Origin: a virus
Taxonomy: Duplodnaviria; Caudoviricetes
Length of the DNA: 61,607 bases
Strand: one strand, 5' to 3'
IMG/VR virus record: IMGVR_UViG_3300048029_000244
Location: 1-61,607 of that record
Shown here one piece after another: positions 1 through 61,607 of the stretch (position 1 is the stretch's first letter; each line of letters opens with the position of its first letter). A program made the position numbers and the translations under genes. The notes beneath the pieces are model-generated. The model made no database searches. It was given only the letters and a program-made list of their open reading frames with translations, and was not told where the DNA came from.

Positions 1-65
1 GAGCAGCAAGTGATATAACAGTTGGTATTGAAACATCGCCTTGTGGACAATCATATACTAACGCT
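1..65. repeat. 65-nt exact direct repeat of the window end (61543-61607); circular-assembly overlap
   Basis: gagcagcaag...tatactaacgct is identical at both ends, and the reading frame continues across the junction. Confidence 0.97.
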
Positions 66-302
66 TGGACTATAGAAGAAACTGAAACTATATCAGCTTC
101 AGCAGATGACGACCACCATGTATTTCATTTTGCTTTTGATAATGCAAAACATTTTGAGTCTACAGATAAAATGGCACTATCAATACAGCAATCTGTTGAT
201 TTGCAAAACGCTAATAGATTTTTTTGGGTAACAGCAGTAATAGAATATAACTGGTCAACCTATTTAGGTGGAACTAGCGCTGAATATCCAACTACACCTT
301 AA
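1..302 (+). CDS. C-terminal part of the tail fibre that begins at 58386 (wraps the junction)
   Basis: Frame 3 is open from the start to TAA at 300-302 (AASDITVGIETSPCGQ...EYPTTP), in frame with 58386-61607. Confidence 0.9.
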   Translation, partial: AASDITVGIETSPCGQSYTNAWTIEETETISASADDDHHVFHFAFDNAKHFESTDKMALSIQQSVDLQNANRFFWVTAVIEYNWSTYLGGTSAEYPTTP

Positions 303-308
303 TTTTAT

Positions 309-316
309 TATCTTTG
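309..316 (+). promoter_or_regulatory. Bacteroidota-type -7 promoter element TATCTTTG, 4 nt before ATG
   Basis: TATCTTTG-TAAT-ATG(321) matches the TAnnTTTG consensus. Confidence 0.75.
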
Positions 317-320
317 TAAT

Positions 321-1459: not shown

Positions 1460-1463
1460 TATT

Positions 1464-1538
1464 ATGGGATACGGTATGAAAAAGTCTTATGGTAAAATGA
1501 AGCCAAAGAAAAAAAAGACTACAAAGAAAAAAAAATAG
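1464..1538 (+). CDS. 24-aa lysine-rich peptide MGYGMKKSYGKMKPKKKKTTKKKK, not in the ORF track
   Basis: ATG 1464 to TAG 1536-1538, overlapping the next GTG start. Confidence 0.6.
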   Translation: MGYGMKKSYGKMKPKKKKTTKKKK

Positions 1539-2005
1539 TGAAACTACAGGTTGTTAGGTTTAGTTCTAGTGTAGAATCTACATCAGGAGCTTTGTATGTA
1601 TTAGAGGAGGAAGGGCGTAAATTTTTATGTTACACTCTTGAAGATGAACACAGAGACATTAAACTTCGTGGTGAGACTCGTATACCTGCTGGTACTTATA
1701 AGATTGAGTACCGCACAGAAGGTGGCTTTCACGCTAAGTACAGCAAAAGGTTTCAAGATATACACAAAGGAATGCTTCACATCACTGACGTTCCTAATTT
1801 TGACTATATCCTTATTCATTGCGGAAACACAGACAAGCATACCGCTGGTTGTCTCTTGGTGGGGGACACCCAACATAACAACATGGTACAAAAAGAAGGG
1901 TTCGTTGGTCAGTCTACGTTGGCTTACAAAAGAATTTATCCTATTATTGCTAAAGCTTTGGATAAAGGTGAAGAGGTTTATATAACGTATACAGACTTTG
2001 ATTAA
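1538..2005 (+). CDS. DUF5675-family putative endolysin (L,D-transpeptidase-like)
   Basis: CYTLED, TRIPAGTY and ILIHCGNTxxHTAGCLLVG motifs; near a holin. Confidence 0.8.
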   Translation: MKLQVVRFSSSVESTSGALYVLEEEGRKFLCYTLEDEHRDIKLRGETRIPAGTYKIEYRTEGGFHAKYSKRFQDIHKGMLHITDVPNFDYILIHCGNTDKHTAGCLLVGDTQHNNMVQKEGFVGQSTLAYKRIYPIIAKALDKGEEVYITYTDFD

Positions 2006-2014
2006 ATAATTTAA

Positions 2015-2022
2015 TATCTTTG
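2015..2022 (+). promoter_or_regulatory. TAnnTTTG promoter, 4 nt before ATG
   Basis: TATCTTTG-CAAT-ATG(2027). Confidence 0.75.
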
Positions 2023-2026
2023 CAAT

Positions 2027-2413: not shown

Positions 2414-2414
2414 T

Positions 2415-2804: not shown

Positions 2805-3054
2805 AATTCCTATATGGTTATCTACATGGTATTTTATAGATTCTAAAAGAAAAAGAACCTATAAAGTGTCTGACGTATTTGTAAAAGGAGAAAGTGTTAA
2901 GGAGGTTATGAACAATAAAATGTTAGTAAATAAATTTACAGCACTTGCAAATAAACGCAACAAAAGAGTAAAATTGTTATTGAACAAAGTCACACTAGAC
3001 TCACAACACGGTTATGGCCCTAGATATGATGACGAGAAACTTTTTACAAAATGA
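2794..3054 (+). CDS. Hypothetical protein
   Basis: 86-aa ORF overlapping its neighbours in the operon. Confidence 0.55.
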   Translation: MSNKIPIWLSTWYFIDSKRKRTYKVSDVFVKGESVKEVMNNKMLVNKFTALANKRNKRVKLLLNKVTLDSQHGYGPRYDDEKLFTK

Positions 3055-4346
3055 ACTCTAATGATAAATCTATAATAGAAAAAATAAAGAAGTATCTATT
3101 AGCAAACCCTGAAAAATTAAACAGCGACTACGCACAAACTGCTAAATTATTTGAATCTAATTATGAAGCTGTTAGAGGTGTAGCTCGTAGACTTCGCAAT
3201 AAATTAACACCTACAAATAAAAATGAGAAGACCTCGTTTACAGAAAACAAAGATGGTGCTGTTGTTACATGTGAAGACAGTAAAAGAGTCAAAAGTCTGG
3301 AAGACCTTCTCAAAGCTTGTCATGTAGACACAAACGTTTGGGAAGTAGAAAAGTACGATATAGGTACTTATGAAGTTACAGGTTTTGATAAAGCTAAAAG
3401 ACCTATAACAATACCAATGTATAGGACGAAAGCATGGTTAAAAAAAATAAACCCATTACAAAACATAGTAAAAATAAGAGAGGAGCTAGTTGAAGACTTG
3501 ACTCCTCTTTTTGTATCTACCACAAAATATATTATACGTCCAGACAGCTATAAAGATGACGACCCGCATTTATTAGAAATTAATGCATTTGACTTACATC
3601 TTGGTAAAATAGGTATAGACGGTGACGATTATAGTTTAGACATAGCTAGACAAAGAATGATAGACGCATTGACACATCTTATCAAGCGAGCTAGCGGATA
3701 CTATATCAATCAAATATTATTTATAGTTGGTAACGACTTTCTAAACTCTGATGGTGATTGGCCTATAGTAAGCACAACAAAAGGTACTCCGCAATACAAT
3801 ACTGACAAAGGTATTGAAATATATAGGGCGGGAAGAAAGTTGATAGTAGAGTGCATACAAATGTTAGTAGAGTATGCAGACGTACATGTTTGTGTGATAC
3901 CAGGTAATCACGACAGAGAGTCTATGATGCATATAGGTGACGCTTTAGAGATGTTTTATGAAAACAACGAAAATGTCACGGTAGACAACAGTAACTCTAT
4001 GATGAAGTCTTTCGTATATGGACAGTGTCTTATAGTAAATGATCACGGTGACGGCCCTAAACTTAACGACTTACCAGGCATAGTGTCTCAGCGATATAGA
4101 GACATCTGGAGCGACGTTCGTTATGTTGAGGTACATAGAGGTCATTTACACACTAACAAAGCTTATAAGATGCAAGCAGTAGAAGAGCTTAACGGACTTA
4201 CAGTGCGTAATCTGTCTTCTATGTCTGCAACAGATGAGTGGCATGATCAAAAAGGCTATGTAGGTAATATCAAAAAAGCTAGTGCTTTTGTATGGAGCGC
4301 ATACAATGGCGTACAAGCTAAATTAAATTATAATGTAAAAGTATGA
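3051..4346 (+). CDS. Calcineurin-like metallophosphoesterase with an N-terminal HTH-like region
   Basis: DLH, GNDFLNSD, GNHD, HGD and GHLH metal-binding motifs. Confidence 0.85.
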   Translation: MNSNDKSIIEKIKKYLLANPEKLNSDYAQTAKLFESNYEAVRGVARRLRNKLTPTNKNEKTSFTENKDGAVVTCEDSKRVKSLEDLLKACHVDTNVWEVEKYDIGTYEVTGFDKAKRPITIPMYRTKAWLKKINPLQNIVKIREELVEDLTPLFVSTTKYIIRPDSYKDDDPHLLEINAFDLHLGKIGIDGDDYSLDIARQRMIDALTHLIKRASGYYINQILFIVGNDFLNSDGDWPIVSTTKGTPQYNTDKGIEIYRAGRKLIVECIQMLVEYADVHVCVIPGNHDRESMMHIGDALEMFYENNENVTVDNSNSMMKSFVYGQCLIVNDHGDGPKLNDLPGIVSQRYRDIWSDVRYVEVHRGHLHTNKAYKMQAVEELNGLTVRNLSSMSATDEWHDQKGYVGNIKKASAFVWSAYNGVQAKLNYNVKV

Positions 4347-4732
4347 GTATATTAGGTAAAATATTTAACAGTGGCGCTAAAGACTTAGTAGACAGCGTAG
4401 GCAATGCTATTGATAAGATACATACCTCAGCAGAAGAAAAAGAACTTGTAAAGAACGAAATAAACAAAGCCATTTATGAGTTTGAAAAAAGTATGCAGGT
4501 AGAAGTAACTAAACGTTGGGAAGCTGATATGAATGGTAACTGGCTTACTAGATCAATCAGGCCTTTATCTTTAGCATTTTTATTATTAGTGCTTACAGTA
4601 TTTACATTAGTAGACTTTGGCTACGTAGATATGGACATTAAAAATTCTTGGATTGACTTATGGCAACTATTAGCCATCACAGCTTTTGGTGCATACTTCG
4701 GAGGACGCTCGTACGAAAAAATTAAAAAGTAA
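4343..4732 (+). CDS. Holin (3TM/GTA-holin-like)
   Basis: RWEADM..WL..SIRP, two TM segments, C-terminal AYFGGRSYEK. Confidence 0.8.
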   Translation: MSILGKIFNSGAKDLVDSVGNAIDKIHTSAEEKELVKNEINKAIYEFEKSMQVEVTKRWEADMNGNWLTRSIRPLSLAFLLLVLTVFTLVDFGYVDMDIKNSWIDLWQLLAITAFGAYFGGRSYEKIKK

Positions 4733-7023: not shown

Positions 7024-7848
7024 TTATTTATAAATATCTTCCGATGTTAATGTTACTAAATTTAATTCACCATTAAATTGCTCATACTTTTTTGGATAAT
7101 AGTTTTCAGCAATACACTGTTGATAAGTTTGCAGTAAACTATCTATGTGCAAGTTTGCTTCGTCCATAACAGACTTGTCTAACTCAAACATAGCTATTTC
7201 ATATGGCGCTTCTTTTTCTACTACAGCAAATACAAAACGTGCATCTGGACTTACCAGACCGTTAGCTTGTAATCCACGTAAATAAAATGCAGCCTGTCTG
7301 TCATAACCAAACTTTCTAATACTAGATGTAAAAGCAGATACAGACGTTGTAGTCTTTAAATCTACAACTAAGTCATCATTGTCTCTACGTAAATCTATAA
7401 GGCTCTTACATTTAATTACATGGTTTTTACCATTTTTATCTTGTACTTTTTCTTCCCATATATTTACAGACTCTGCTACACCTTTATTAGACGTAAACAA
7501 TTCAGACATAGTTTTGTTATCATAAACTGCATCTTTCATTGCTAGTATCCTAGAATATTGATCAGTTGTTATTACAACCTTGTCACCTGCTTTAGACATA
7601 TGATTAGCAAAGTCTTCTTTTCCAGCTTTAGTTCTTTTGTCAAGCTTAGGCATTACATAATATAAATCATCAAATTTATCAGACTCTAGCACTGCACAAT
7701 GAAATGCAGAGCCAAATGTCATAGCATCAGTCGGGACAGACTTTTTATCTATCTGAGACTTGAAATATGCAGGGCTTTGTTTTAACCAACTAAGCATTGA
7801 ATTTGTTACATGCTCTTTATCATCATAATAGTTCTCTTGTGTTATCAT
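7024..7848 (-). CDS. RecE/ExoVIII-like PD-(D/E)XK exonuclease (DUF3799-like)
   Basis: FGSAFHCAVLE, DKRTKAGK, VDLKTT, YDRQAAFY, FAVVEKEAPY. Confidence 0.85.
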   Translation of the reverse strand: MITQENYYDDKEHVTNSMLSWLKQSPAYFKSQIDKKSVPTDAMTFGSAFHCAVLESDKFDDLYYVMPKLDKRTKAGKEDFANHMSKAGDKVVITTDQYSRILAMKDAVYDNKTMSELFTSNKGVAESVNIWEEKVQDKNGKNHVIKCKSLIDLRRDNDDLVVDLKTTTSVSAFTSSIRKFGYDRQAAFYLRGLQANGLVSPDARFVFAVVEKEAPYEIAMFELDKSVMDEANLHIDSLLQTYQQCIAENYYPKKYEQFNGELNLVTLTSEDIYK

Positions 7849-7852: not shown

Positions 7853-8095
7853 TTAGTTTTGTTCTAGGTCTTGTTTTCTAAATTCTCTTTTATATAGTTC
7901 GTAGTTAGGCAAATCCTTAGCGCTACGCTCTATATCTTCGTGCAATTCGCAAATCTTTTTATACAAATCTTCATAATGTTCTGGTGTTTTATGTATGTTT
8001 TTCATTTGTTCTAATACATGTTCTACCACCATTATAGTATACTCCTGATTTGACAGTGCATCTAAATACGCTTTCTCTTTCTTTTTATTAAACAT
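7853..8095 (-). CDS. Hypothetical coiled-coil protein
   Basis: 80-aa ORF in the operon. Confidence 0.55.
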   Translation of the reverse strand: MFNKKKEKAYLDALSNQEYTIMVVEHVLEQMKNIHKTPEHYEDLYKKICELHEDIERSAKDLPNYELYKREFRKQDLEQN

Positions 8096-8558
8096 AATTA
8101 TACTTTAGTTCTTTATTAGTTTGTTTTAATTCTTTGATTTGTCTTTTTAGTTTGAACATTTCAGTTTTAATATCTTCTATTTCTTCTTTTTTAGAGGTAA
8201 TGTTTTCTCTAAGAACATTGTTAGATATTAATAATCTGTGTACTATGTCTGCGTGTTTGTCTTTATCATCTAAGTATGACTTAGCAAACGAGCTTGCAAC
8301 AGCATATGCATTAAAATAATCTTTGTATATCTTGCTTAGCTTATCATATTCTTTGACATGATATATAACAGAAGAATGGTCTCTGTTAATTAACTTGCCA
8401 CAATTATCTAAGCCTAAATCAAATACACGCCTTAATACATTAGACACTATTAGTCTGTGAAATACTAGCTCACGCTTTCTGCTCCTAGACATAAACTCTT
8501 TTTTACTTATGTTATGTTTAACTAAATAATCTTCTATAAACTTCTTTGCTTGTTTCAT
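8088..8558 (-). CDS. DnaA C-terminal (domain IV)-like HTH protein with a coiled-coil tail
   Basis: SRSRKRELVFHR...GKLINRDHSSVIY resembles the DnaA IV R...R...GxxxgRDHtTV.h motif. Confidence 0.7.
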   Translation of the reverse strand: MKQAKKFIEDYLVKHNISKKEFMSRSRKRELVFHRLIVSNVLRRVFDLGLDNCGKLINRDHSSVIYHVKEYDKLSKIYKDYFNAYAVASSFAKSYLDDKDKHADIVHRLLISNNVLRENITSKKEEIEDIKTEMFKLKRQIKELKQTNKELKYNYV

Positions 8559-8923
8559 TATAATACTTTTATAATTACACCTGGGTTAGCTTTATCGTAT
8601 GTGTATGGCTCAAATGATGGTATTATGTTTTCACAGTTATCATCCTCTAACCAACCATACTTAACCATTAGGTCTTGAACAGTTTGACACGGGTTTATGT
8701 AATCAAACTTATGTTTAGATCCCCTAACAAATGTAAATGATATTTTATAGGGGGCTGTCTTACCCTTCAACAAAGACTTAAACCTCTCCTTGTTCGATAA
8801 GTAATCAGCTTTTGTAGACTTGATGTATTTCATCACAGTCTTAGAGTGGATGAGCATTTTGCCCGTCCATCTCTTACCGTTTTTGCTAGAGGGTACATTA
8901 CCCCCTATAAATATCTGGTTCAT
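8558..8923 (-). CDS. RusA-like Holliday junction resolvase
   Basis: VPSSKN, FDYIN and DLMV..GWLEDDN acidic triad pattern. Confidence 0.7.
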   Translation of the reverse strand: MNQIFIGGNVPSSKNGKRWTGKMLIHSKTVMKYIKSTKADYLSNKERFKSLLKGKTAPYKISFTFVRGSKHKFDYINPCQTVQDLMVKYGWLEDDNCENIIPSFEPYTYDKANPGVIIKVL

Positions 8924-9552: not shown

Positions 9553-10107
9553 TTACTTTTTCCAGTTAAATCTTACTTTACCATTTTGGTCTTTGGCAGC
9601 TAACTGGATTAAACTGCCTTTATCATCGCGTTTTGCGCCCCAAGTCCACTCTTTAAGTTTTAATCCCCAAGTAGCTTTAGCACGACCTCCTACCTCTTGG
9701 TATTCGCCTTGCTCTAGTTTAACTTGTATTAGAGGAAAGTCGTATAACTCACGACCTATACCCCAATTAAAGCATGCACGCTTAAATGCGTCTGAAGCTT
9801 GACCTTTCTCAGCCTCAGTGTTAGACTCTGTACCCACGTCTTGTTTGCTAACCCACTGATTGATAGTCGGGTTGTATACAGACACAGTACAGTAAAGTCT
9901 ACCGTCTTTTACCTCGTAGCTTTTGCTCCAGTTCTCTGGGCCTACAACTGCGTCTAAGACATTCATATCGTATCTTGCGTCTTTGTAGGCTAAGATTGTA
10001 GCATAGCCACCTTTGTTAATTGATTGTACTCTGAAGTCTATCTGCTCCATTTCCACTGGTTGATTTAATTTTTTAAAATCCATAGTTTTACTTTTTTCTT
10101 GTTTCAT
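9553..10107 (-). CDS. Rad52/Sak-like single-strand annealing protein
   Basis: LAYKDAR...LDAVVGPENW...KGQASDAFKRACFNWGIGRELY. Confidence 0.9.
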   Translation of the reverse strand: MKQEKSKTMDFKKLNQPVEMEQIDFRVQSINKGGYATILAYKDARYDMNVLDAVVGPENWSKSYEVKDGRLYCTVSVYNPTINQWVSKQDVGTESNTEAEKGQASDAFKRACFNWGIGRELYDFPLIQVKLEQGEYQEVGGRAKATWGLKLKEWTWGAKRDDKGSLIQLAAKDQNGKVRFNWKK

Positions 10108-10312
10108 ATCGTTTTATATCTCTGTTAAGCTTTTTAAGTGTTGCTACTGCCAAAACTATCTTAATGAATCTTCTTATAAGTATTGGCGATTTACTTGTAA
10201 TAAGTATAAATCCTATTTCTTTGAAGACTCTATGTAAGATTGATTTGATTGTAGCTTTACTGAAGCCAGTACGTTCAGATACTCTACTTATGATACGTTC
10301 ATAATTAGACAT
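10088..10312 (-). CDS. HU/IHF-like DNA-binding protein (armless)
   Basis: IISRVSERTGFSKATIKSILHRVF resembles the HU N-terminal helices. Confidence 0.6.
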   Translation of the reverse strand: MSNYERIISRVSERTGFSKATIKSILHRVFKEIGFILITSKSPILIRRFIKIVLAVATLKKLNRDIKRYETRKK

Positions 10313-10350: not shown

Positions 10351-10500
10351 TTACTTTTTACGCATATTTTTAATTTTTATTAACAAAAATCCTAACCCAG
10401 TTATAGCTATAAATGGTATAAGTTTTATTGATAATATTGCTGTAAAAATTAAGGCTAGCATTCCAATAAATGCCCACCCTACAATATCTACTTCGTTCAT
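10351..10500 (-). CDS. 49-aa membrane peptide, not in the ORF track
   Basis: MNEVDIVGWAFIGMLALIFTAILSIKLIPFIAITGLGFLL...; ATGA overlap with dnaB. Confidence 0.6.
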   Translation of the reverse strand: MNEVDIVGWAFIGMLALIFTAILSIKLIPFIAITGLGFLLIKIKNMRKK

Positions 10501-11780
10501 ATTCTTGACATAAATTTAGTTCGACTTGCGTCAAAGTTCATATTAATTTCTCCTACACCTATATTACGACCTTTAGCAAATATAATCTGCGCTAGGCCAG
10601 CAGAATCAGTGCCGTCTTCGAGTGAGGGGATGTTGTAGTATTCAGGTCTATATAGTAGACAGACTATATCCGCTGCTTGCTCGATTTCACCTGACTCTCT
10701 AAGGTCAGACATAGTAGGTTTAGGATTGCCTCTAAATGATACACCTCTGTTTAGCTGTGATAAAGCTATAACAGATATGTTAAGTTCTTTTGCAAGGTTT
10801 TTAAGCGTCCTTGCAACCATTGAGACTTCTTGTTCTCGCGTACCGTTTTTCTTTCCTTCAACGGAGACGAGTTGGAGGTAGTCGATAAGTACAACCTCAA
10901 CATTGTCATTAATAGCATATTTTCTAATTTTAGATGTTAAATAGTTTAGTGATGTTCTTTTACAATCGTCTATCCTAAGAGGTAAGCTTTCTATTACGCC
11001 TATAGCTTTGTTAACTAATGCTAACTGCTCTTTATCTATTGCGCCTTGATTAAGCTCTCTTAGAGATACACCAGACTCTACACTAATAAGTCTTTGTAGT
11101 AACTGTGGGGCAGACATTTCGTAACTAAATATAGCTACAGGATGTTTAGTCTTAACAGCATTGTATGCAACATTTAAAGCAAAACTTGTTTTACCCATAG
11201 AAGATGCTGCACCAATGATTGTCAAGTCTGTAGGCTGCCAACCATTTGTAAAGTTGTCTAGACACGAGTAACCAGTTGTTACACCAGTAATACCATCGGT
11301 AGCCATGCGGGTCGTTAAAGTCTGATAGTAATCACCAAGTTGAGACACGATTGTTTCGTTATCACTTGCGCTATCAGCTGATATAATGTTTATACCCTTT
11401 TTAAGTACCTCTGATATATTGTCTAGATGTTCTCTATTTTGCATTAAGTTATTTATCTCCAGCAAAACACTACCCATAGATTCATATTTACTATTGTAAA
11501 CCATATCATCTATGACTTGCTCTAACTGAAAGTTAGAATAACCATACTTTTCACAGTCAAATAACACGCCCAGAACTATTTTATCCATTCCTAATTGCTT
11601 ACCAAGTGTTACCAGGTCTATTGCTTTATCAGACTTGTAGACTTTTTTAATTGCATTCCATATCATATTATGATTTGGATCTTGCAATCTAATTTTGTTT
11701 AATCTATCTTCGTGTAAAGCATATGTTTCTGGACTTACTAGTATTCTGCCAATAAGAAACTTTTCTTGTTCTGTGTTCAT
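10497..11780 (-). CDS. dnaB: Replicative DNA helicase DnaB-like
   Basis: Walker A variant GAASSMGKT, FSYEMS, IDYLQL, LSQLNR, DLRESGEIEQ; ATG at 11780 preferred over TTG at 11804. Confidence 0.93.
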   Translation of the reverse strand: MNTEQEKFLIGRILVSPETYALHEDRLNKIRLQDPNHNMIWNAIKKVYKSDKAIDLVTLGKQLGMDKIVLGVLFDCEKYGYSNFQLEQVIDDMVYNSKYESMGSVLLEINNLMQNREHLDNISEVLKKGINIISADSASDNETIVSQLGDYYQTLTTRMATDGITGVTTGYSCLDNFTNGWQPTDLTIIGAASSMGKTSFALNVAYNAVKTKHPVAIFSYEMSAPQLLQRLISVESGVSLRELNQGAIDKEQLALVNKAIGVIESLPLRIDDCKRTSLNYLTSKIRKYAINDNVEVVLIDYLQLVSVEGKKNGTREQEVSMVARTLKNLAKELNISVIALSQLNRGVSFRGNPKPTMSDLRESGEIEQAADIVCLLYRPEYYNIPSLEDGTDSAGLAQIIFAKGRNIGVGEINMNFDASRTKFMSRI

Positions 11781-11787
11781 AGTTTTA

Positions 11788-12429
11788 TTAATTTGTATAT
11801 TCAACTTCAGTGTATGTATACGGCTCTATTTCTTCACATTTAGGACAGTAACTATGATGATCGTCTTCATCATACTCTTGATCTACATCACAGCATTCTG
11901 TTTTGTAAACAACACGACCATCTTTATTATATTCATGTCCATCAATGCAACCAAACATACCAGCATACCCGCCTTCTTCTTCCCATTCATTTTCAAAATC
12001 TAAATTAGAAAATTGTTCTATTAAATGGTTAATAAAGTTTACAGGCGGCCCCCAAGGGGTATCAAATTTAAGAATAAATTGTGAATCTGTAACTTCATGG
12101 ACTTCTACATCACTGCAATTCCATTTACATCCCCAATTTTCTAGAGACCAATCATACCAATTTGTATGACCATACTCTTCTGTCATTATATCTATCTCTG
12201 TTTGTGTCAACCCTCTTTTACTGCCGTCTGCATTTTCTACCCACTGCTCATACTTTACACCGTCTATAGTGCAAAAGCCAGTAGTAATTTCTCTAAAGAT
12301 TGCAGGCATAGGGACAAACCATTCAAAATCAAATGACTCTCTATCATTAGACTTAAACTTGTCATAAAACTTTTTCATTCCCTCTTTAGTTCCTCGAACC
12401 TCCAAGGTATTCCAGCACCAGTTTGGCAT
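11788..12429 (-). CDS. DUF1281/YubB ferredoxin-like domain protein with a C-terminal Cys motif
   Basis: MPNWCWN, NWYDW...NWGCKWN, FDTPWGPP, CC...CPKC. Confidence 0.75.
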   Translation of the reverse strand: MPNWCWNTLEVRGTKEGMKKFYDKFKSNDRESFDFEWFVPMPAIFREITTGFCTIDGVKYEQWVENADGSKRGLTQTEIDIMTEEYGHTNWYDWSLENWGCKWNCSDVEVHEVTDSQFILKFDTPWGPPVNFINHLIEQFSNLDFENEWEEEGGYAGMFGCIDGHEYNKDGRVVYKTECCDVDQEYDEDDHHSYCPKCEEIEPYTYTEVEYTN

Positions 12430-13768: not shown

Positions 13769-14701
13769 TTAAACTGTTTCTAATATTTCTTTTTCTGTAA
13801 TTGATTTTAATAATTCGGTTAGAAAGGCTTTCTCTCTACCTTGTTTAGTCCACTTAACTTCTAGTAAGTGTTTAATGTTTAACAAATCTTTTACCTCCTG
13901 TGATGTTTCATTACCATAACCAAGGCCATTTGTAGCGTTGCCCTCCAGGTAATTAATCCATGTAGTAAAACCAAAAGCTCTGTATAAACCAGGTATACCT
14001 ATACAAGCTATTCTAGACACGTCTAGTTTTTCTTGTGCAGATTTTAATACGCAGGTAAAACCTTGCTCAGGACTTGAGCCTATTAATTTATTAGACATTA
14101 TTTTATGTGCTACACACATTCCCACAACTTCTACTGCTAAACCACAGCGCTGTAGCATGTCCACAGCAACTGTAGTTAAAGCACCTAGTTTGTTAAGCTG
14201 TTCTTCACTATGCCCGCAGGTCACAGAAAAGTTAACACCAAGTCTAATAACATTTTGTTTTTTACCACGAGTCATAGACTGCCAGTGTTCTGGATCACCA
14301 GATAACACCCTGTCTATGTCTAGTTCTGAACCTGATTCACCAAACTTTCTACGTCTTTTAAACGTATCAGCACGTCTCATCATGTCATCTATGCCGTCCA
14401 TATTCAACAAAACATTTCTATACTCTTCTATATGTTTTAGTGTATTTTGAGAACACTCACCGTTTCTAAGAGCTTCTGTTGTTGATTCTAGACCTTGGAA
14501 CTCAGTACCCCAAGTCCATTCGTCAAACTCACCTTTATCAAGATACTTGCGTTTAGTGGCATTATCTTTAGTAGACTCTACCATATGTGCAACAGAATCA
14601 TAGTGTAGTATTTCTACACCTTTATTCTTATTAAACATACCATAGTCGTATGTAATGCCGTCAGGTAATTTCTTTTTCTTTACAAAAGTTTCTTTTAACA
14701 T
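13769..14701 (-). CDS. vWA-like partner of the MoxR AAA+ ATPase (degenerate MIDAS)
   Basis: GSELDIDRVLSGDPEHW followed by the strand IRLGVNFSVT; adjacent to the AAA+ gene. Confidence 0.6.
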   Translation of the reverse strand: MLKETFVKKKKLPDGITYDYGMFNKNKGVEILHYDSVAHMVESTKDNATKRKYLDKGEFDEWTWGTEFQGLESTTEALRNGECSQNTLKHIEEYRNVLLNMDGIDDMMRRADTFKRRRKFGESGSELDIDRVLSGDPEHWQSMTRGKKQNVIRLGVNFSVTCGHSEEQLNKLGALTTVAVDMLQRCGLAVEVVGMCVAHKIMSNKLIGSSPEQGFTCVLKSAQEKLDVSRIACIGIPGLYRAFGFTTWINYLEGNATNGLGYGNETSQEVKDLLNIKHLLEVKWTKQGREKAFLTELLKSITEKEILETV

Positions 14702-15900
14702 GCTTCTGCTTTTAATAAATTATTTACTTTAACTTTTCTTTTCTCCTCATCAGACCAGTCTATAATTAAACTATTAATAAACTGCTTAACAGTTTTACCT
14801 GTGCTGTGCTGTCTTTGAGCAGAAATAAAAGCACGAGTAGATATAACTCTACGTATTTTATTCTTAGCCACCTCTTTTCTTAGACCTGACAATGCTTTAT
14901 ACATAGGTACATACGTGCATATATCTTTCTCTAGACTTTCATCATAGTCTACTACGACTTTAGATGCAGAGAATCTATCAAGAAATGCTGCGTCCATATA
15001 ATTTCTACCAGCATATTCTATAGAGCCGTTACCCCATGTGTTACCTGCAACCATACATACAAAGTCCTCATGTCTTTTAGCTGTAGGATTATCTTTTCTG
15101 TTTGGTACAGACATAGAGCCATTGGCTAATGCTGAGTTTACAACCAGCATGGTGTTAGCATCTGCTGCGTCTATCTCGTCAAACAAGAAGACACCACCAT
15201 TCTCATAGCAGTCTACAAAGTCAGACTTTACATACGTGCCGTCAAATAACATACGTCCCAGTAGATGAGCTTCTGATAGACCTGCACTACATGATATATG
15301 TTTAAACTTTAGGTTCATAGCTTTAGCTACTTGGTTACACATGTGTGTTTTACCAGAGCCAGATGGCCCTGCAATAAATACTTGACGTTCTATTTGTGCG
15401 TAATACAACACATCTTTAAATGCTTTATGTTGTTTACCTTCAATTTTTACGTCTACACGACCAGGAATGCGTACTAGAGTAGGCTTTAGCTTAGCCACCT
15501 CTTTCTCAACTTTAGCATTAATCTGCTTATTAATGAGTTCTTCACGCTGACCTTCAAGCATGCCTTGTACAGCGTTACTAATTACAGCACCCAGGTCAAG
15601 ACCTAAGTCAATTTTCATTTGGTTTCCTTCCATTTTATCTTTTTTAGGAGTTACTTTTTGTTCTTCTAATTCTTCTACCTCTTCAAACAAATCTTTAGGT
15701 TTTCTATGTTCGTCTATCATTTCTTGTACTATATTAAAGTCAGGATGATAATCAATAATAAAATCTATTAAAGTTTGTTTTGGAGTTCTATTAACTTGTC
15801 CATACATTTCTTCACAAGCACCTTGCACTTGTTTCGATGTTCTTGCAACTTTTCTTAAAAAGTCTACGTTTTCTTTATTTAATTCTAATTTTAAATCCAT
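14695..15900 (-). CDS. MoxR/CbbQ/CobS-type AAA+ ATPase
   Basis: GPSGSGKT, FLFDEIDAA, AGNT, MDAAFLDRF, STR. Confidence 0.9.
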   Translation of the reverse strand: MDLKLELNKENVDFLRKVARTSKQVQGACEEMYGQVNRTPKQTLIDFIIDYHPDFNIVQEMIDEHRKPKDLFEEVEELEEQKVTPKKDKMEGNQMKIDLGLDLGAVISNAVQGMLEGQREELINKQINAKVEKEVAKLKPTLVRIPGRVDVKIEGKQHKAFKDVLYYAQIERQVFIAGPSGSGKTHMCNQVAKAMNLKFKHISCSAGLSEAHLLGRMLFDGTYVKSDFVDCYENGGVFLFDEIDAADANTMLVVNSALANGSMSVPNRKDNPTAKRHEDFVCMVAGNTWGNGSIEYAGRNYMDAAFLDRFSASKVVVDYDESLEKDICTYVPMYKALSGLRKEVAKNKIRRVISTRAFISAQRQHSTGKTVKQFINSLIIDWSDEEKRKVKVNNLLKAEAC

Positions 15901-17561: not shown

Positions 17562-17690
17562 TTTCTTTATTTAGATGATTAATAATTTGTTTTTATGCAA
17601 CTTTTGTTTTAAACGGGACTTGCATATGTCCTAAAAAACCCCGAACTTTGGTGGGTGAGTGGTCTACTATTACTTATTAGTATTAAACTT

Positions 17691-17820
17691 CTAAATAACA
17701 AATAGACAGTTATACCACTTACAGTTCAGGGTATTACAGTTCTAAATTACTGATAATCAAACAGTTATACTCTATTATCCACTAAATCATTACAAAATAG
17801 ACAGATTATATAGGGTATTA
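17691..17820. repeat. Imperfect direct-repeat array in the largest non-coding gap (candidate origin/regulatory array)
   Basis: CTAAAT x3 (17691, 17742, 17782), ACAG(A)TTATA x3, AAATAGACAG x2, AGGGTATTA x2. Confidence 0.55.
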
Positions 17821-17843
17821 GACTATATCTTACTCTTAAACGT

Positions 17844-19170: not shown

Positions 19171-19704
19171 ATGTATTTATTGAAGGTGAGCAAAAAGGGT
19201 AGTATCCATAAAGATGCTGATAGCGTAACACTTGTTCCAGAATTTAAAAAACTGCTTGCAGCAGAGGGTATGGGTGAGACAGCTATGAAATGGGTGGCGT
19301 TAATGCACGACTATGAAAGCCCATATAGATATTTGTCTATAGATGAAAGAGCAAAAGCAGTTAGCAAAGATTTATATAACGATTTTAGTTGGAAGGGTGC
19401 TAACAAGCCAGTATTAAAGGCAGCTGTAGAAAAATATAAAAAATTACAATTTGATCCTCTTGACGAACAACTTATAGCATTTAATGCAAAAATTGATCAG
19501 TTTACTAAGTATATGAACAGCATGATTATCAATGACGACAATGCAGAGAGTTTACAGAAATTAATGATTGGGATAGAAAAGATATTGAAGACACGTCAGA
19601 CTTTGCTAGACGTGATAGAGCGTAGAGGTGAAAGACAAAAGATTGTCGGTGATAAACAAATGTCATTTTTAGAAAACAAACTAAACAGAGACCAAGATGC
19701 ATGA
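19171..19704 (+). CDS. Probable terminase small subunit (crAss-type gene upstream of TerL)
   Basis: Helical 177-aa protein with D..SPY, overlapping the terL start. Confidence 0.55.
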   Translation: MYLLKVSKKGSIHKDADSVTLVPEFKKLLAAEGMGETAMKWVALMHDYESPYRYLSIDERAKAVSKDLYNDFSWKGANKPVLKAAVEKYKKLQFDPLDEQLIAFNAKIDQFTKYMNSMIINDDNAESLQKLMIGIEKILKTRQTLLDVIERRGERQKIVGDKQMSFLENKLNRDQDA

Positions 19705-29247: not shown

Positions 29248-29620
29248 AGATATATACAAGTCTATAAAGTCTGACATAAATAATATAAGCTATACTAATT
29301 TTTATAGTATAGTAAAGACGTTTTTTGAAGAATTGATACGTGAGTTAGTCGTAGACAAAGCTACAGTTACATTACCAGCTAAAATGGGTAAAGTATATAT
29401 AAAGAAAATGCTACACAAAAGAGCTTTTCATTATAGATGCAATGTAAATGAAGTAGATAATAACGGTAAAAGGGTAGTTTATAAAGTACCGATATTAAAC
29501 GACTATTATTATAAGGTAGTTTGGTTGCGGCCAAAAAAATATAAAATGGCAAAATTAATGCCAATGGGATTTTTTAAAAAAGCTATAAAAAAAGAATTAG
29601 AAATAGGTAACGATTTTTAA
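29198..29620 (+). CDS. IHF-like protein of the crAss structural block
   Basis: F..IV..FFE......VTLP.KMG.+YI.K pattern; conserved position before the tail tubular gene. Confidence 0.7.
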   Translation: MDKHLERKYKDKYVSVKDIYKSIKSDINNISYTNFYSIVKTFFEELIRELVVDKATVTLPAKMGKVYIKKMLHKRAFHYRCNVNEVDNNGKRVVYKVPILNDYYYKVVWLRPKKYKMAKLMPMGFFKKAIKKELEIGNDF

Positions 29621-57003: not shown

Positions 57004-57006
57004 ACT

Positions 57007-57977: not shown

Positions 57978-58264
57978 TGGCAACCGCAGCACAAGAAATA
58001 GCATTAATGCAACAAAGAATGGATACTTTAGAAAAGAAGATTGATGACATGGATAAGAAGTTAGACAATTTAACTTCACAATTATTAAATCCTGACGATG
58101 GTTTTGTTGCTAGAGTTAATAAAAATACAGCGTTTAGAAAAGACATGGAAGAACTTGTGTCTGAAATATACGCTATGAAAAGATGGAGAAGAACAATAGA
58201 CTATGTGGTAAAAGCTTTAGTAGTTGCTGTAATAGGTAGTATAGTCAAAATATTTTTTATGTAA
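57977..58264 (+). CDS. Coiled-coil protein with a C-terminal TM segment (holin/XhlA-like)
   Basis: Heptad region then VVKALVVAVIGSIVKIFF. Confidence 0.55.
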   Translation: MATAAQEIALMQQRMDTLEKKIDDMDKKLDNLTSQLLNPDDGFVARVNKNTAFRKDMEELVSEIYAMKRWRRTIDYVVKALVVAVIGSIVKIFFM

Positions 58265-58386
58265 TGAGAAAAATAGCGTCAACGTTTAAATACAAGTCTA
58301 AAACTAAAAGACCAGGTGTGCATTCTAAAAATGCCAGTAAAAATAAGTCTGGATATAAATCTAAGTATAGAGGTCAAGGTAAATAA
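58264..58386 (+). CDS. 40-aa basic peptide ending KYRGQGK, not in the ORF track
   Basis: MRKIASTFKYKSKTKRPGVHSK...YRGQGK; TAATG coupling on both sides. Confidence 0.75.
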   Translation: MRKIASTFKYKSKTKRPGVHSKNASKNKSGYKSKYRGQGK

Positions 58387-61300
58387 TGAAATGGATAGGA
58401 CAACACATATGGGACTTTGTATCAAGGTTTAGAAATGATGTATACTTAGAAGACCTTGACGCTTCAAGCGGCACGTCTGCTTTAGTAGTAGACGCTCAAG
58501 GTAAAGTACATATCAACACTGGTCTAGCTACAGGCGGAGGCTCAGAGTATGTAAGTCTACCAGTAAGGTTTGAAGAAGCTGTATCAAAAGGAGACCCTGT
58601 TTATATTAGTGGTTATCACGGTTCGGTAGGCCCTGTGATAGTTGCTAAGGCAGACGCATCTAGTGCTAGCCACATGCCTGCTTTTGGATTAGCAGATGCT
58701 GATTACACACAAAACTCTACAGGTCACGCCATATCAATAGGTAACTTACAAGACATAGATACTAGTGATTATAGTGTTGGAGACACGTTATACGTAGCTT
58801 CAGGCGGTGGACTAACTAACGTAAAACCTACGGGCGCAAACTTAATACAAAACGTAGCTACAGTATCAAGGTCTAACGCTAACAATGGACAGTTAGAAGT
58901 TGTAGCAACTGGTAGAACTAATGATGTACCAGCACCATTATACATTGACCACGCTAATCAACGCGTTGGTATTGGAGCTACTAGTCCTGGTGAAAAGCTA
59001 GAAGTTAATGGTAATATAAAAATTGGGGATAATCAAAGAATAGCTTTTGGTAGCGGTGACGACTTAAGAATAACTCACGACAGTACAAACAGCTATATAC
59101 AAAACTTTACTGGTCATTTAAACATTATAAACCAAGCTGATGATAAAGATATAATATTCAAATCAGACGATGGCTCGGGCGGAGTTGAAACATATTTCTT
59201 TTTAGATGGTAGTAATGGTCTAACAACTTTCCCTGACAACAAAAAGCTTGGCTTTGGAAACGCTAGTGATTTAAGAATACAACACGATGGTAGCGATAGC
59301 TATATAAGCCAGGTTGGAACTGGCAATCTATACATACAAAACAGTGTTGACGACAAAGACATTATATTTCAATCAGATGATGGCTCTGGAGGTGTTACAA
59401 CTTATTTAGCTATTGATGGCAGTACTAATAGAGTTAATTTTAATAAACCTATAAAAATAGTTGATAGCACAGCTATAAACATAGGCTCAGGTTTAGATTT
59501 AAGATTAACGCATGATGGTACAGATTCTTTAATACAAAATTTTGAAGGTAATTTAGAAATACAGCAACGGGCAGACGACAAAGACATTATACTAATGTCC
59601 GATGATGGTTCTGGCGGGCAAACTGCTTACTTAACTTTAGATGGTACTAACGTTAGAACTAAATTCCACAAAACTGTAAATCTAGAAGATGATGTACAGC
59701 TACAAATAGGTAATTCACAAGATTTAAAACTATATCATAGCGGGACACATAGTTATATTAGTCAAGAAGGTGTTGGTGATTTATATATTCAAACTCTAAC
59801 TGATGATCGCGACATAATATTTTTAAGTGATGATGGTAGTGGTGGTGTAGCAGAATATTTTAGAATTGATGGTGGATTAGGTCATACAACTATTTCCAAG
59901 AGATTAAGAGCTAACGACAACGTAGACTTTGCCGTAGGAACAGGTAACGACTTGCGATTAGTGCATGATGGCACACATTCGTACATGACTAATTACACTG
60001 GTGATTTTTATATAGCTAATCATAGCGACGACAAACACATAATATTTCAATCAGACGATGGTAGCGGGGGTTTAGCGGAATACTTTAGAGTTCATGGTGG
60101 AGCTGAAATAGTTTTATTTAGCAAAGAAGCTAGGTTTGCTGATAATGTTAAACTAAAACTAGGAACAGGACCTGATTTTGAATTATACCACAACGGTACA
60201 AGCAGCGTTATACAGGATCTTACAGGAGATTTATATTATAGAACTTGGGCTGGTAGTATGATTTTTGAACAAAATCAAAACGATGGTGACATTATATTCA
60301 AGTCTGACGATGGTTCTGGAGGCGTTGAAACATATTTCTTTTTAGACGGTAGCGAAGGCGTTGTAAACTTTCCAGATAACAAAAGACTGACATTTGGTAC
60401 TGGTCGTGATTTATTTTTATACCACGATGGAACAAACGCTACGTTTAAAAACTACGTTGGCGATATTGTAATACAAAATGAAGCTAATGACAAAGACATA
60501 ATATTTAAGTCTGATGACGGTTCAGGTGGAGTAACAGAATACTTTAGGTTAGATGGTAGTGTTGGTGCAGGTTCTACTGTCCACACAGTATTTCCAGATA
60601 ATAGTAAAGCAGTGTTTGGTACTGGATTAGACACGCAAATATATCATGATGGTAGCAACTCTTACATCAAACAACAAGGTGGAGGAGATCTCTATATACA
60701 GCAAACAACTGACGACAAAGATATAGTACTACAGTCAGATGACGGTTCAGGTGGAGTAACAGCCTACTTAACTTTAGATGGTAGTGCTGTGGCGAACAAA
60801 TTTAGTGAAAAAGTACAAATATACAAACTTGATGCTACAGCAAATCCAAGATTATCTATTGGTAGACAAGCGCAAGAAAGCATAAACTTTGACGTTGAAG
60901 ATAGGACAGCTAGAATATATCACAGACAAGATGAAACAACAGGCAATCATGTTTTAAAGCTTACTGTAGATTCAGATACTTCTGACACTAAGGATATACA
61001 TTTAGGGTTTAGAGATGCAGATGGTTCTAACGAGTCTATTAAATTTACTGTTGATGAAAGTGGTAATGTAGGTGTTGGTACTACTGATCCATCTGAAAAA
61101 CTACATATTGTAGGAGATTTAAAAGTAGCTACAAATGCTGATGCTGGTGTTATACATTTTGGCGATACAAGTGATGAAACAAAAATAGTAGGATATGACT
61201 CTAGCGACTCCAATACAAGGTTTGATTTTTTTACATCTGGCTCTAAAAAGCTAACTATACTTGACAGCGGCAACGTTGGTATTGGAACTGATAGTCCATC

Positions 61301-61607
61301 TGAAAAGCTAGAGGTTGATGGTAATATAAAGTTAAGCGGTAATTTAGATATTGAAGGTAGTGTACAAAAACAAATACAAGTATTTCCAATGAACTTTGTA
61401 GATGATTTAGGCACAGATAAACACTTTATGCCGTTTGTAACCGCTAATGAGCAAACAGCTAATTATCAAGAAGAAGCTTGTATGGTTATGCCAGCAGACG
61501 GTAGAGTTGTATCTGTAACGGTACACTACGCTCAGATGCACGGAGCAGCAAGTGATATAACAGTTGGTATTGAAACATCGCCTTGTGGACAATCATATAC
61601 TAACGCT
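58386..61607 (+). CDS. Long tail fibre (1152 aa including 1-302) with eight SDDGSGG repeats; missed by the ORF track
   Basis: Open frame from MKWIGQHIWDF to the window end; VGIG..SP.EKL.V.G fibre motifs x3. Confidence 0.88.
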   Translation, partial: MKWIGQHIWDFVSRFRNDVYLEDLDASSGTSALVVDAQGKVHINTGLATGGGSEYVSLPVRFEEAVSKGDPVYISGYHGSVGPVIVAKADASSASHMPAFGLADADYTQNSTGHAISIGNLQDIDTSDYSVGDTLYVASGGGLTNVKPTGANLIQNVATVSRSNANNGQLEVVATGRTNDVPAPLYIDHANQRVGIGATSPGEKLEVNGNIKIGDNQRIAFGSGDDLRITHDSTNSYIQNFTGHLNIINQADDKDIIFKSDDGSGGVETYFFLDGSNGLTTFPDNKKLGFGNASDLRIQHDGSDSYISQVGTGNLYIQNSVDDKDIIFQSDDGSGGVTTYLAIDGSTNRVNFNKPIKIVDSTAINIGSGLDLRLTHDGTDSLIQNFEGNLEIQQRADDKDIILMSDDGSGGQTAYLTLDGTNVRTKFHKTVNLEDDVQLQIGNSQDLKLYHSGTHSYISQEGVGDLYIQTLTDDRDIIFLSDDGSGGVAEYFRIDGGLGHTTISKRLRANDNVDFAVGTGNDLRLVHDGTHSYMTNYTGDFYIANHSDDKHIIFQSDDGSGGLAEYFRVHGGAEIVLFSKEARFADNVKLKLGTGPDFELYHNGTSSVIQDLTGDLYYRTWAGSMIFEQNQNDGDIIFKSDDGSGGVETYFFLDGSEGVVNFPDNKRLTFGTGRDLFLYHDGTNATFKNYVGDIVIQNEANDKDIIFKSDDGSGGVTEYFRLDGSVGAGSTVHTVFPDNSKAVFGTGLDTQIYHDGSNSYIKQQGGGDLYIQQTTDDKDIVLQSDDGSGGVTAYLTLDGSAVANKFSEKVQIYKLDATANPRLSIGRQAQESINFDVEDRTARIYHRQDETTGNHVLKLTVDSDTSDTKDIHLGFRDADGSNESIKFTVDESGNVGVGTTDPSEKLHIVGDLKVATNADAGVIHFGDTSDETKIVGYDSSDSNTRFDFFTSGSKKLTILDSGNVGIGTDSPSEKLEVDGNIKLSGNLDIEGSVQKQIQVFPMNFVDDLGTDKHFMPFVTANEQTANYQEEACMVMPADGRVVSVTVHYAQMHGAASDITVGIETSPCGQSYTNA
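61543..61607. repeat. End copy of the 65-nt circular overlap
   Basis: Identical to 1-65. Confidence 0.97.

Follow-up and report, generated by a model that had tools for sequence, protein, structure and literature searches.

A compact phage genome joining a crAss-type virion module and a gp66-like RNA polymerase core to a replication set with no detectable DNA polymerase or primase

Among the crAss-like phages, the giant RNA polymerase has been described as a hallmark of the group and the primase as the one gene for replication that is conserved throughout (PMC10136315), while the core list of the Crassvirales (PMC7886860) also includes the DnaB helicase, a PD-(D/E)XK nuclease and a metallophosphatase, all three of which are present in the sequence analysed here. 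Marine Crassvirales carrying the full core gene set are known as well (PMC11502894, PMC13558084), and two families of ~73-kb flavobacterial podophages, Pachyviridae and Pervagoviridae, have been described as relatives or sister clades of the Crassvirales (PMC9855967, PMC13558084), being tied to them through the structure of the capsid and terminase (PMC9855967). In addition, 155 of 167 terL-bearing marine viral metagenome-assembled genomes called Crassvirales by geNomad were assigned to sister clades with Pachyviridae and Pervagoviridae (PMC13558084). The subject of the present study is the virus record IMGVR_UViG_3300048029_000244 of the IMG/VR database, which was analysed over its whole length of 61,607 nt and is referred to as the window throughout. 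The evidence taken together makes it quite probable that the window is a complete phage genome of 61,542 bp, in which a crAss-type virion and an RNA polymerase similar to gp66 of the phage phi14:2 are combined with a replication set of the lambdoid/P22 style, encoding neither a DNA polymerase nor a primase and leaving the copying of its DNA to host enzymes, and that its lineage stands beside the Crassvirales.

The window equals the entire record and contains zero N. Its first and last 65 nucleotides are identical, which gives the unique length of 61,542 bp, and the record is classed in IMG/VR under 'direct terminal repeats' with a CheckV completeness of 100%. The open reading frame (ORF) starting at position 58386 crosses the junction in frame and encodes 1,152 amino acids (aa) in total, its stop codon ending at window position 302; since the 65-nt repeat thus lies inside a gene, it reflects an assembly that maps as a circle and overlaps itself, rather than a physical terminus. 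The genes are laid out in two arms, i.e. a virion arm on the plus strand, running from 18.9 kb via the junction to 4.7 kb, and a replication arm on the minus strand, from 4.8 to 18.9 kb, with the strand skews flipping at ~4.7 kb and ~18.5 kb, the same places as the gene orientation. The G+C content is 0.29–0.37 along the whole window, in which no tRNA genes were found.

Concerning the relatives, 232 records of IMG/VR with a related terminase large subunit (TerL) were confirmed by tblastn; among the 80 of them that were kept, 12 contigs are at least 50 kb long and the longest measures 67,187 bp. The window is thus not a one-off and belongs to a populous lineage with genomes of 60–67 kb. Four relatives were fetched in full, the TerL identity being 92% for G002 and 68% for both G006 and G008. 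All three of these, with 60,318 bp (G002), 67,187 bp (G006) and 65,046 bp (G008), agree with the window in their genes and in the circular arrangement of these, and their contigs are broken elsewhere—inside the giant gene described below (G002 and G008) or between the genes for the small-terminase candidate and TerL (G006)—the genes on either side of the window junction being contiguous within G002 and G006. The contig of G008, containing 10 N, ends inside the giant gene and has an end repeat of its own (59 nt), which, like that of the window, looks like an assembly overlap rather than a physical terminus. Because the relatives are colinear and have different break points, a missing segment that would hide a replicase is very unlikely. 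The window could still be conceived as an incomplete or mis-circularised piece of a ~100-kb crAss-like genome with the polymerase and primase on the lost part, in favour of which one may cite the 65-nt repeat, which lies inside an ORF and thus stems from overlapping assembly ends, marking no physical terminus. This is, however, contradicted by the CheckV completeness, by the gene circle shared with the three relatives despite their other breaks, with G008 closing at 65,046 bp, by the maximum length among the 80 kept relatives, and by the profiles of PolA, PolB, DnaG_N and Prim-Pol matching none of the six relatives that are at least 90% complete. The fragment explanation is therefore close to refuted, with hardly any probability left to it, and the self-closure with an in-frame junction, noticed in an earlier note made from the sequence alone, is borne out: the window is the complete circular-mapping genome of an uncultured phage.

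The virion arm is recognisable as crAss-type from its sequence, as that note had also proposed. The matches to the Pfam families Crass_capsid, CrAss_Ring_1, CrAss_Ring_2 and crAss_MUZ (Table 1) all exceed the curated cut-offs, and the order of genes—ring protein 2, a 140-aa protein, ring protein 1, muzzle, the 794-aa and 632-aa proteins and finally the giant gene, with a 233-aa protein following the muzzle—corresponds to gp40 and gp42–gp47 of crAss001, so that the arrangement from ring protein 2 to the polymerase is the same in both genomes. The portal exhibits up to 31% identity to the portals of Crassvirales (E-value 5e-82 with cr4_1). The tblastn records listed for the portal (60 of 125, spread over the whole ranking) and the capsid (the best 30 of 62) are Crassvirales, FpV4-type phages or short unannotated faecal entries named 'Bacteriophage sp.', with identities of 20–31%; the complete genomes among these listed matches are at least 88 kb long, with one exception of 75,754 bp. 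Of the lineage profiles built for 16 window proteins and compared with the ORFs of crAss001, the Elemovirus vB_FspP_elemoE_6-9C (elemoE) and phi46:3 of the Pachyviridae, only two found a counterpart, both in crAss001: ring protein 1 matches gp43 (E 2e-10) and the DUF5675 protein matches gp30, annotated as 'L,D-carboxypeptidase' (E 2.9e-15). An identity with N4-like phages (Schitoviridae), prompted by the genome size and the giant protein, was rejected, as no N4-like phage is listed in the tblastn tallies for TerL, portal and capsid, and the fold of the polymerase is that of the two-barrel gp66 and not T7-like.

The gene for the giant protein of 3,824 aa comprises 11,475 nt, i.e. 18.6% of the unique length, in agreement with the earlier estimate of about 19%. 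The protein has no match in Pfam or PHROGs, its first 3,000 aa have no tblastn match in 50,697 phage records, and phmmer found no match to the chains of the PDB. A scan of 1.84 billion representative proteins yielded 32 relatives, 11 of them with a length of 3,703–4,045 aa and most of the others much shorter, and open frames of 3,707–4,110 aa are present in 9 of the 11 relatives of the window, namely those with the gene uncut by a contig end; the contig ends of G008 divide its frame in two, and no match was obtained in G003, a record 86% complete. Structure models were prepared for residues 2000–2800 of the giant protein and for the 197-aa protein similar to single-stranded DNA-binding proteins (SSB) that is described below. 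The AlphaFold2 model of the former, with a predicted local distance difference test score (pLDDT) of 72.8 and a predicted template modelling score (pTM) of 0.71, has as its top Foldseek match in the PDB the virion RNA polymerase gp66 of phi14:2 (6vr4_A; E 1.7e-8, prob 1.00, 866 columns), which is at the same time the sole match at E ≤ 0.001; the later ones are single-chain two-barrel polymerases, i.e. P32 gp64, P74 gp62, P23-45 gp96, QDE-1 and RDR2. Independently of Foldseek, VIA-align selected 6vr4_B with a Z-score of 19.5 and a root mean square deviation of 4.4 over 589 residues (chain residues 1022–1860), the runners-up being RDR2 (13.2), QDE-1 (11.0) and multisubunit RNA polymerases (~9–10).

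The protein contains a single DxDGD site, DKDGD at residues 2364–2368, which belongs to a block G[SA]DxDGD[SA] present in all 11 loci; in an alignment of 18 rows with a mean column identity of 25%, the columns G363, D365, D367, G368, D369 and N389 are invariant. A conserved TRIPAHxK motif is positioned ~35 residues upstream of this block, and the two together resemble the NRAPTLH...NADFDGD pattern of the bacterial beta-prime subunit. Based on the modelled fold and the motif, the central part of the giant protein can be identified, in all probability, as a gp66-type RNA polymerase, the assignment covering the core, with flanks of ~2,000 residues before and ~1,000 residues after it; the retention of a crAss-type virion RNA polymerase, postulated in the earlier note, thus agrees with Foldseek, VIA-align and the DxDGD motif alike. 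It may be added that the giant protein is only ~50% identical where TerL is 92% identical (G001 and G002) and ~30% where TerL is 68% identical (G004–G010), so that it diverges far faster than TerL, suggesting a strong diversifying pressure on a presumably injected protein. Since none of the sequence methods tried could see the polymerase core, marker- or profile-based screens will overlook such phages or assign them wrongly.

With regard to the enzymes of DNA synthesis, the Pfam scan of 67 window proteins yielded no family of DNA polymerases or primases, and in the PHROG scan of 48 window proteins the rows named after a polymerase or primase correspond to P-loop ATPase regions only: within DnaB, phrog_239 'DNA primase/helicase' is confined to the helicase portion, while the AAA+ ATPase is matched by phrog_168 'clamp loader of DNA polymerase' (E 1.6e-5). 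Six-frame searches with hidden Markov models (HMMs) for PF00476 (PolA), PF00136 (PolB), PF08275 (DnaG_N) and PF09250 (Prim-Pol) gave no match in 12 records, i.e. the window and 11 relatives, including the six of the latter that are at least 90% complete; DnaB_C, searched likewise, was found in 9 of the 12 records and in all six of these relatives. No match to PF13155 (Toprim_2), PF13662 (Toprim_4), PF01807 (DnaG zinc ribbon), PF03175 (protein-primed PolB), PF07733 (Pol III alpha), PF08706 (D5_N) or TIGR01391 was obtained in five near-complete genomes of the lineage. As for the controls, PF00476 detected PolA in crAss001 and in the Leptolyngbya phage Lbo-JY46, Toprim_2 was detected in crAss001, and TIGR01391 matched crAss001, phi14:2 and FpV4 weakly (2e-5 to 4e-4). 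The absence of crAss-type primases and of the polymerase families A, B and C is hence well supported as far as profile searches are concerned, and the central claim of the earlier note stands in the sense that neither enzyme could be detected, in the window or in the relatives, by searches in which the crAss controls were mostly found.

The same note had stated that every ORF longer than 300 aa could be assigned to something other than a polymerase or primase, which holds for 12 of 16 at the level of family or fold; for the remaining four, of 322, 467, 794 and 632 aa, the assignment is drawn only from where they lie within the virion module and from Atlas leads that are weak. A polymerase or primase might therefore be imagined that is present but too divergent for profile HMMs, either among the unassigned proteins of the minus arm or as a part of the 794-, 632- or 3,824-aa proteins. 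Those four ORFs, together with ~3,000 residues of the giant protein, are indeed without a family or fold assignment, the RNA polymerase core itself was unseen by every sequence method, and in two controls a known or annotated phage primase went undetected, PF08275 failing with the crAss001 primase and PF13155 together with TIGR01391 with the annotated TOPRIM primase/helicase of elemoE; a very divergent primase could thus escape sequence profiles. The only unassigned ORFs of polymerase length (794 and 632 aa), however, sit at the cargo positions of gp45 and gp46, in the interval between muzzle and polymerase, and their Atlas neighbours are cargo and lysozyme clusters and not polymerases; the unassigned minus-arm proteins conserved in the lineage have just 74–129 aa, which is small for a primase, and neither G006 nor G008 has the 213-aa or the 310-aa protein. 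A hidden divergent enzyme is accordingly regarded as improbable, and a phage lacking both enzymes remains the preferred reading, its DNA being most likely copied by the enzymes of the host.

The replication arm fits with such a dependence. Four members of the host-dependent module described in the earlier note, DnaB, the Sak-type annealase, the RecE-like nuclease and the RusA-like resolvase, are corroborated by family matches (Table 1), although the RusA-like name comes from PHROGs and Pfam sees an RNase H-like fold there (Terminase_3C, 9e-5, under the cut-off). The fifth, named SSB, can be retained only as SSB-like, on account of its modelled OB-fold and its C-terminal tip. This 197-aa protein has no match to an SSB family in Pfam or PHROGs; it ends with ...EDADLPF, and behind a variable linker the residues D192, D194, P196 and F197 are shared by all 13 sequences compared, the most distant of which have 42% identity. 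Its model (pLDDT 77.7) finds the plasmid OB-fold DNA-binding protein PrgE as the best fold match (E 4.2e-5, prob 1.00, template modelling score 0.40–0.42), the matches of canonical bacterial SSBs being weak (E 0.05–0.3); it is therefore designated here as SSB-like rather than as a canonical SSB. DnaB, the annealase, the SSB-like protein, the resolvase, the nuclease and the metallophosphatase nuclease are kept in the window, G002, G006 and G008, as are four small proteins of 74–129 aa.

A scheme that would connect these components can be proposed by analogy, both with phi14:2 and crAss001 and with replication of the P22 and lambda type. The giant protein would be packaged in the virion and ejected with the DNA through the muzzle, along with the two proteins at the cargo positions, and its polymerase core would transcribe the early genes of the minus arm, as in phi14:2 and crAss001. 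A phage origin-binding protein, for which the protein with the DnaA domain-IV-type helix-turn-helix is the candidate, might then load the phage DnaB. Through its N-terminal domain, DnaB could recruit the DnaG primase and the Pol III holoenzyme of the host, together with the SSB-like protein acting through its D-x-D-[LM]-P-F tip, and these host enzymes would perform all DNA synthesis. The nuclease and annealase may aid recombination-dependent replication at a later stage, and the RusA-like resolvase may resolve junctions or process concatemers before packaging of the headful type.

The position of the lineage was assessed in an evolutionary tree of TerL, a single-gene tree of 25 rows and 610 columns calculated under LG+C20+F+G4. 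It comprises seven members of the window lineage, six Suoliviridae, six Steigviridae, one representative each of Crevaviridae and of the epsilon crAss-like phages, FpV4, Lbo-JY46, elemoE and phi46:3, the root being set on the last two by assumption. The window lineage is monophyletic (93/97), and a split with a support of 100/98 separates it, together with elemoE and phi46:3, from the sampled Crassvirales with FpV4, Lbo-JY46 and epsilon. Forcing the lineage to group with Suoliviridae, the source of its best BLAST matches, costs 35 log-likelihood units, with p 0.022 in the approximately unbiased (AU) test. Judged from this one gene, the lineage is thus placed beside the sampled Crassvirales, not nested inside them. 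Two observations from the same tree may be mentioned: the TerL of Lbo-JY46, a phage with a genome of 125 kb and a split PolA match, groups with epsilon csAssE-Sib at 100/100 and represents a crAss-type terminase in a phage of a non-Bacteroidota (cyanobacterial) host, and the TerL matches of the Suoliviridae cr114_1, cr272_1 and cr113_1 contain 10, 3 and 7 in-frame stops, respectively, under translation table 11, which fits the stop-codon reassignment reported for this group (PMC10136315).

This placement bears directly on whether the lineage is 'reduced', as the earlier note had called it. PolA and PolB are undetected also in elemoE, phi46:3 and FpV4 with PF00476 and PF00136, so that loss is no more likely than an ancestor that was already small and host-dependent; as the polymerase-less state is common around the base of the assemblage, no additional changes are required if the crown acquired the replisome, and reduction cannot be taken as shown. 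Consistent with a secondarily reduced member of the Crassvirales, one that lost polymerase, primase, the SNF2 and SF1 helicases and the genes of nucleotide metabolism, are the virion proteins being crAss-type at the level of sequence, unlike those of Pachyviridae, the description of the primase as a universally conserved replication gene of crAss-like phages (PMC10136315) and the precedent of polymerase loss at the level of a lineage in cyanopodoviruses (PMC9860041). Nonetheless, the TerL split from all sampled Crassvirales, the AU test against a clade with Suoliviridae and the three neighbours without PolA/PolB, owing to which fewer changes would suffice if the crown gained the replisome, speak in the other direction, as does the root of the tree being an assumed one, and a secondary reduction is deemed rather unlikely. 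Possible, if somewhat short of an even chance, is that the lineage is a surviving sister branch of the Crassvirales that never had a replisome of its own, the virion and the injected RNA polymerase having come first, on a ~60-kb host-replicated podophage, and the replisome block having been added later.

Several points have to be set against the overall picture of a host-replicated sister lineage carrying a gp66-like polymerase. The lineage profile of the polymerase core found nothing among the PDB chains better than E 1.7, and nothing below E 0.049 in crAss001 (gp47 and gp49 whole and only the last 516 nt of gp50), elemoE, phi46:3 and a part of phi14:2; because the core is without a match at the level of sequence, the polymerase call rests on the predicted fold and the motif. 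The two failures of control probes reported above belong here as well. In the replication arm, DnaA-box-like sites are not enriched (25 against 19.7 expected, a number reached in 12 of 100 shuffles), and no replication origin was identified in the window. The packaging of the giant protein, its role in early transcription and every step of host recruitment are inferred by analogy. The TerL tree leaves out Intestiviridae and the marine clades C1–C4 (PMC11502894) and contains several long branches. Finally, no TerL relative was found in a scan of 185,579 species genomes, which therefore offers no lead to a host or prophage.

As far as the habitat and lifestyle are concerned, near-identical sequence occurs in 12 runs from 12 studies labelled as seawater metagenome, with shares of sampled words of 0.22–0.90, the run with the highest share being possibly the source sample itself. 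The low G+C content and the seawater-labelled runs are only suggestive of a host from Bacteroidota. The Pfam scans of the window proteins revealed neither an integrase nor a repressor family, which, along with the lack of relatives in the species genomes, fits a lytic lifestyle without proving it.

Table 1 Features of the window, with their positions, strands and the evidence for each assignment
Feature	Position	Strand	Evidence or remark
End overlap, 65 nt identical	1..65 = 61543..61607		sits within tail-fibre-like ORF
DUF5675 protein, candidate endolysin, crAss001 gp30-like	1538..2005	+	Pfam DUF5675 E 3e-29
Metallophosphatase-type nuclease, SbcD-like	3051..4346	+	phrog_704 'DNA repair exonuclease' E 8e-66; Pfam Metallophos 2e-4
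Holin	4343..4732	+	phrog_3427 E 5e-23
RecE-like PD-(D/E)XK exonuclease	7024..7848	-	Pfam DUF3799 E 5.8e-28; phrog_412 'exonuclease VIII' E 2.6e-60
156-aa protein, DnaA domain-IV-type helix-turn-helix, candidate origin-binding	8088..8558	-	Pfam Bac_DnaA_C E 1.7e-9
RusA-like Holliday-junction resolvase	8558..8923	-	phrog_1682 E 9e-22
SSB-like OB-fold protein, 197 aa	8934..9527	-	invariant C-terminal D-x-D-[LM]-P-F tip; predicted fold
Rad52/Sak-type single-strand annealing protein	9553..10107	-	Pfam Rad52_Rad22 E 5e-9; phrog_1097 E 8e-27
74-aa ORF	10088..10312	-	adjoins DnaB; kept in G002, G006 and G008; sub-threshold HU/IHF match Bac_DNA_binding E 1e-3
DnaB-family replicative helicase	10497..11804	-	Pfam DnaB_C E 8e-84; DnaB N-terminal domain 1.6e-10; no primase domain
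Cys/Trp-rich protein, 213 aa	11788..12429	-	DUF1281_C (Api92-like ferredoxin-like) domain E 2.3e-8; overlaps DnaB end
Accessory pair: DUF7192 protein (310 aa) and AAA_5 / CobS-like ATPase (401 aa)	13769..15900	-	phrog_249 E 9e-56 for ATPase
Longest non-coding stretch in the early arm; promoter or origin candidate	17562..17843		imperfect 25-nt direct repeat (80% identity), 51 nt apart; other short repeats
Small-terminase candidate, 177 aa	19171..19704	+	position only, directly upstream of TerL
Terminase large subunit	19697..21505	+	phrog_6681 E 1.3e-90; 26-28% identity to Suoliviridae TerL
Portal	21506..23770	+	phrog_6547 E 5e-113; P22_portal 1e-10
crAss-type major capsid protein	24877..26349	+	Pfam Crass_capsid PF23898 E 2e-37, residues 25-484 of 490
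Tail ring protein 2	28600..29247	+	Pfam CrAss_Ring_2 E 2.3e-19
140-aa protein	29198..29620	+	synteny with HU/IHF-like gp42 of crAss001; lineage-conserved
Tail ring protein 1, crAss001 gp43-like	29622..30281	+	Pfam CrAss_Ring_1 E 4.7e-30
Muzzle, 1,708 aa	30285..35411	+	Pfam crAss_MUZ PF25731 E 3.2e-127
794-aa and 632-aa proteins, candidate ejected cargo	36114..40396	+	position of crAss001 cargo gp45 and gp46
Giant protein, 3,824 aa	40399..51873	+	predicted gp66-like two-barrel RNA polymerase core, residues ~2000-2800
Two tail/receptor-binding proteins, 864 and 539 aa	52177..56390	+	phrog_5939 'tail protein' E 8e-40 and 1.5e-38
Tail-fibre-like protein, 1,152 aa, across the junction	58386..61607, on to 302	+	phrog_13518, phrog_8745, phrog_9942 'tail fiber'

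Concerning the remaining features of the virion arm (Table 1), the small-terminase candidate has no match in Pfam or PHROGs and is conserved at 64–86% in G002, G011, G006 and G008, and the 140-aa protein, despite its gp42 position, has no family match above the cut-off in the Pfam and PHROG scans. The 794- and 632-aa proteins gave zero HMM matches with Pfam and PHROGs; their Atlas feature leads, crAss_CARG1 (0.81) and crAss_CARGO2 (0.86), are both under the reliable range, and the Atlas scores of 0.81–0.89 obtained for the two proteins were kept as leads only and not accepted as assignments. The two tail/receptor-binding proteins are unconserved in G006 and G008. The metallophosphatase-type nuclease, the gene of which adjoins that of the holin, exhibits 61–81% identity in G002, G006 and G008. 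As to the replication arm, the pair of the AAA_5 and DUF7192 proteins is present in the window and G002 and absent from G006 and G008, and PDB sequence searches with the 310-, 213- and 197-aa proteins gave nothing below E 0.06. The repeats across the non-coding stretches of the window form short two-copy families only.

As far as the searches reach, the combination seen in this lineage is a new one, i.e. a virion recognisable as crAss-type by sequence, a gp66-type polymerase recognisable by fold within a single protein of ~3.8 kaa, neither DNA polymerase nor primase, and a populous group of 60–67-kb genomes. No ~60-kb crAss-type phage with a virion RNA polymerase and without polymerase and primase was found described in the literature, in which polymerase-less crAss-like phages and small flavobacterial relatives are known, although the supplementary gene tables (PMC7886860, PMC11502894, PMC13558084) may list some; close described relatives with the same content, named in the earlier note as what would speak against its claim, were thus not encountered. 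The lineage keeps the hallmark of the giant virion RNA polymerase in the absence of the DnaG-type primase held to be universal, in a genome ~60% the size of the 97-kb p-crAssphage (PMC10136315). This indicates that the crAss module of virion and transcription is compatible with a replication module that depends on the host. The lineage also offers a phylogenetic bridge between the Crassvirales and the small flavobacterial podophages (Pachyviridae, Pervagoviridae and Elemovirus), and it bears on the question of gain versus loss of the crAss replisome. If a member can be cultured, it would provide a compact system for early transcription driven by a virion RNA polymerase, and if the sister-branch reading is true, the genome would be the smallest so far known to carry a gp66-type virion RNA polymerase and would represent crAss biology in a minimal form.

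The closest comparison is that with the Crassvirales themselves. Their capsid, portal, both ring proteins and muzzle match those of the window (crAss001, phi14:2 and the Suoliviridae cr114_1 and cr4_1), and the window shares with phi14:2 the gp66-like two-barrel RNA polymerase with its DxDGD motif. On the other hand, Crassvirales have genomes of 83–106 kb in the records compared and up to 192 kb (PMC10136315), against 61.5 kb here; the Pfam matches of the window, in contrast to them, include no PolA/PolB, no DnaG-type primase, no SNF2/SF1 helicase and no family of nucleotide metabolism; three neighbouring genes of crAss001 (gp47, gp49 and gp50) are annotated as RNA polymerase subunits, whereas in the window the core is placed inside one protein of 3,824 aa; and the TerL falls outside the sampled crown. 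The statement of the earlier note that typical Crassvirales encode PolA/PolB is true of typical members, but it does not apply universally, polymerase-less crAss-like phages having already been published (PMC7886860). The epsilon crAss-like phages (crAssE-Sib) are likewise without a DNA polymerase (PMC7886860, PMC11054128); their genomes of ~145–192 kb, however, keep a different primase (PMC10136315, PMC11054128), whereas the lineage of the window, with 60–67 kb, has no primase detected. FpV4 (NC_041872.1), an 88-kb crAss relative, resembles the window in having no PF00476 or PF00136 match and differs from it in matching Toprim_2 and DnaG, if only weakly; possibly it belongs to the environmental crAss-like phages without a polymerase that have already been mentioned (PMC7886860).

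Of the smaller relatives, Pachyviridae (phi46:3) and Pervagoviridae share with the window a small genome of low G+C content without a PolA/PolB match, and the replication set of phi46:3, with a DnaA-like protein, SSB, annealase and RusA, is host-dependent in style and similar to that of the window. The TerL of phi46:3 is, however, only 19% identical, its portal and capsid have no similarity detectable by tblastn, and it carries an integrase and a repressor and no ORF longer than 1,612 aa, unlike the window; no polymerase motif or match to the polymerase-core profile was found in it. In tblastn with an E-value limit of 1e-5, the capsid of the window matched no Cellulophaga record, a comparison made at the level of sequence, the published link of Pachyviridae being a structural one, and the portal matched two Cellulophaga records, of which the one listed is phi14:2 of the Steigviridae. 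Among cultured phages, Elemovirus (elemoE, 59,979 bp) has the layout most similar to the window, with a comparable genome size, two divergent arms, the order TerL, portal and structural genes, an Erf-type annealase, an exonuclease and, as in the window, a DNA polymerase neither annotated nor detected. It differs in encoding an annotated TOPRIM primase/helicase, and its TerL aligns over only 46% of the query with 25.5% identity. The Elemovirus genome ends with a 3,694-aa 'structural protein' (gp18; NC_055854.1, 48851–59935), which was rejected as a homologue of the giant protein at the level of sequence, given the best BLAST E-value of 0.073 and no DxDGD motif. Finally, in modules of the P22/lambda type, a phage initiator and a phage helicase of the DnaB family work with the primase and Pol III of the host, an annealase/exonuclease pair and a RusA-type resolvase being encoded nearby; the window, with no repressor or integrase in its Pfam scans, presents a similar module joined to a crAss-type virion and a presumably injected RNA polymerase.

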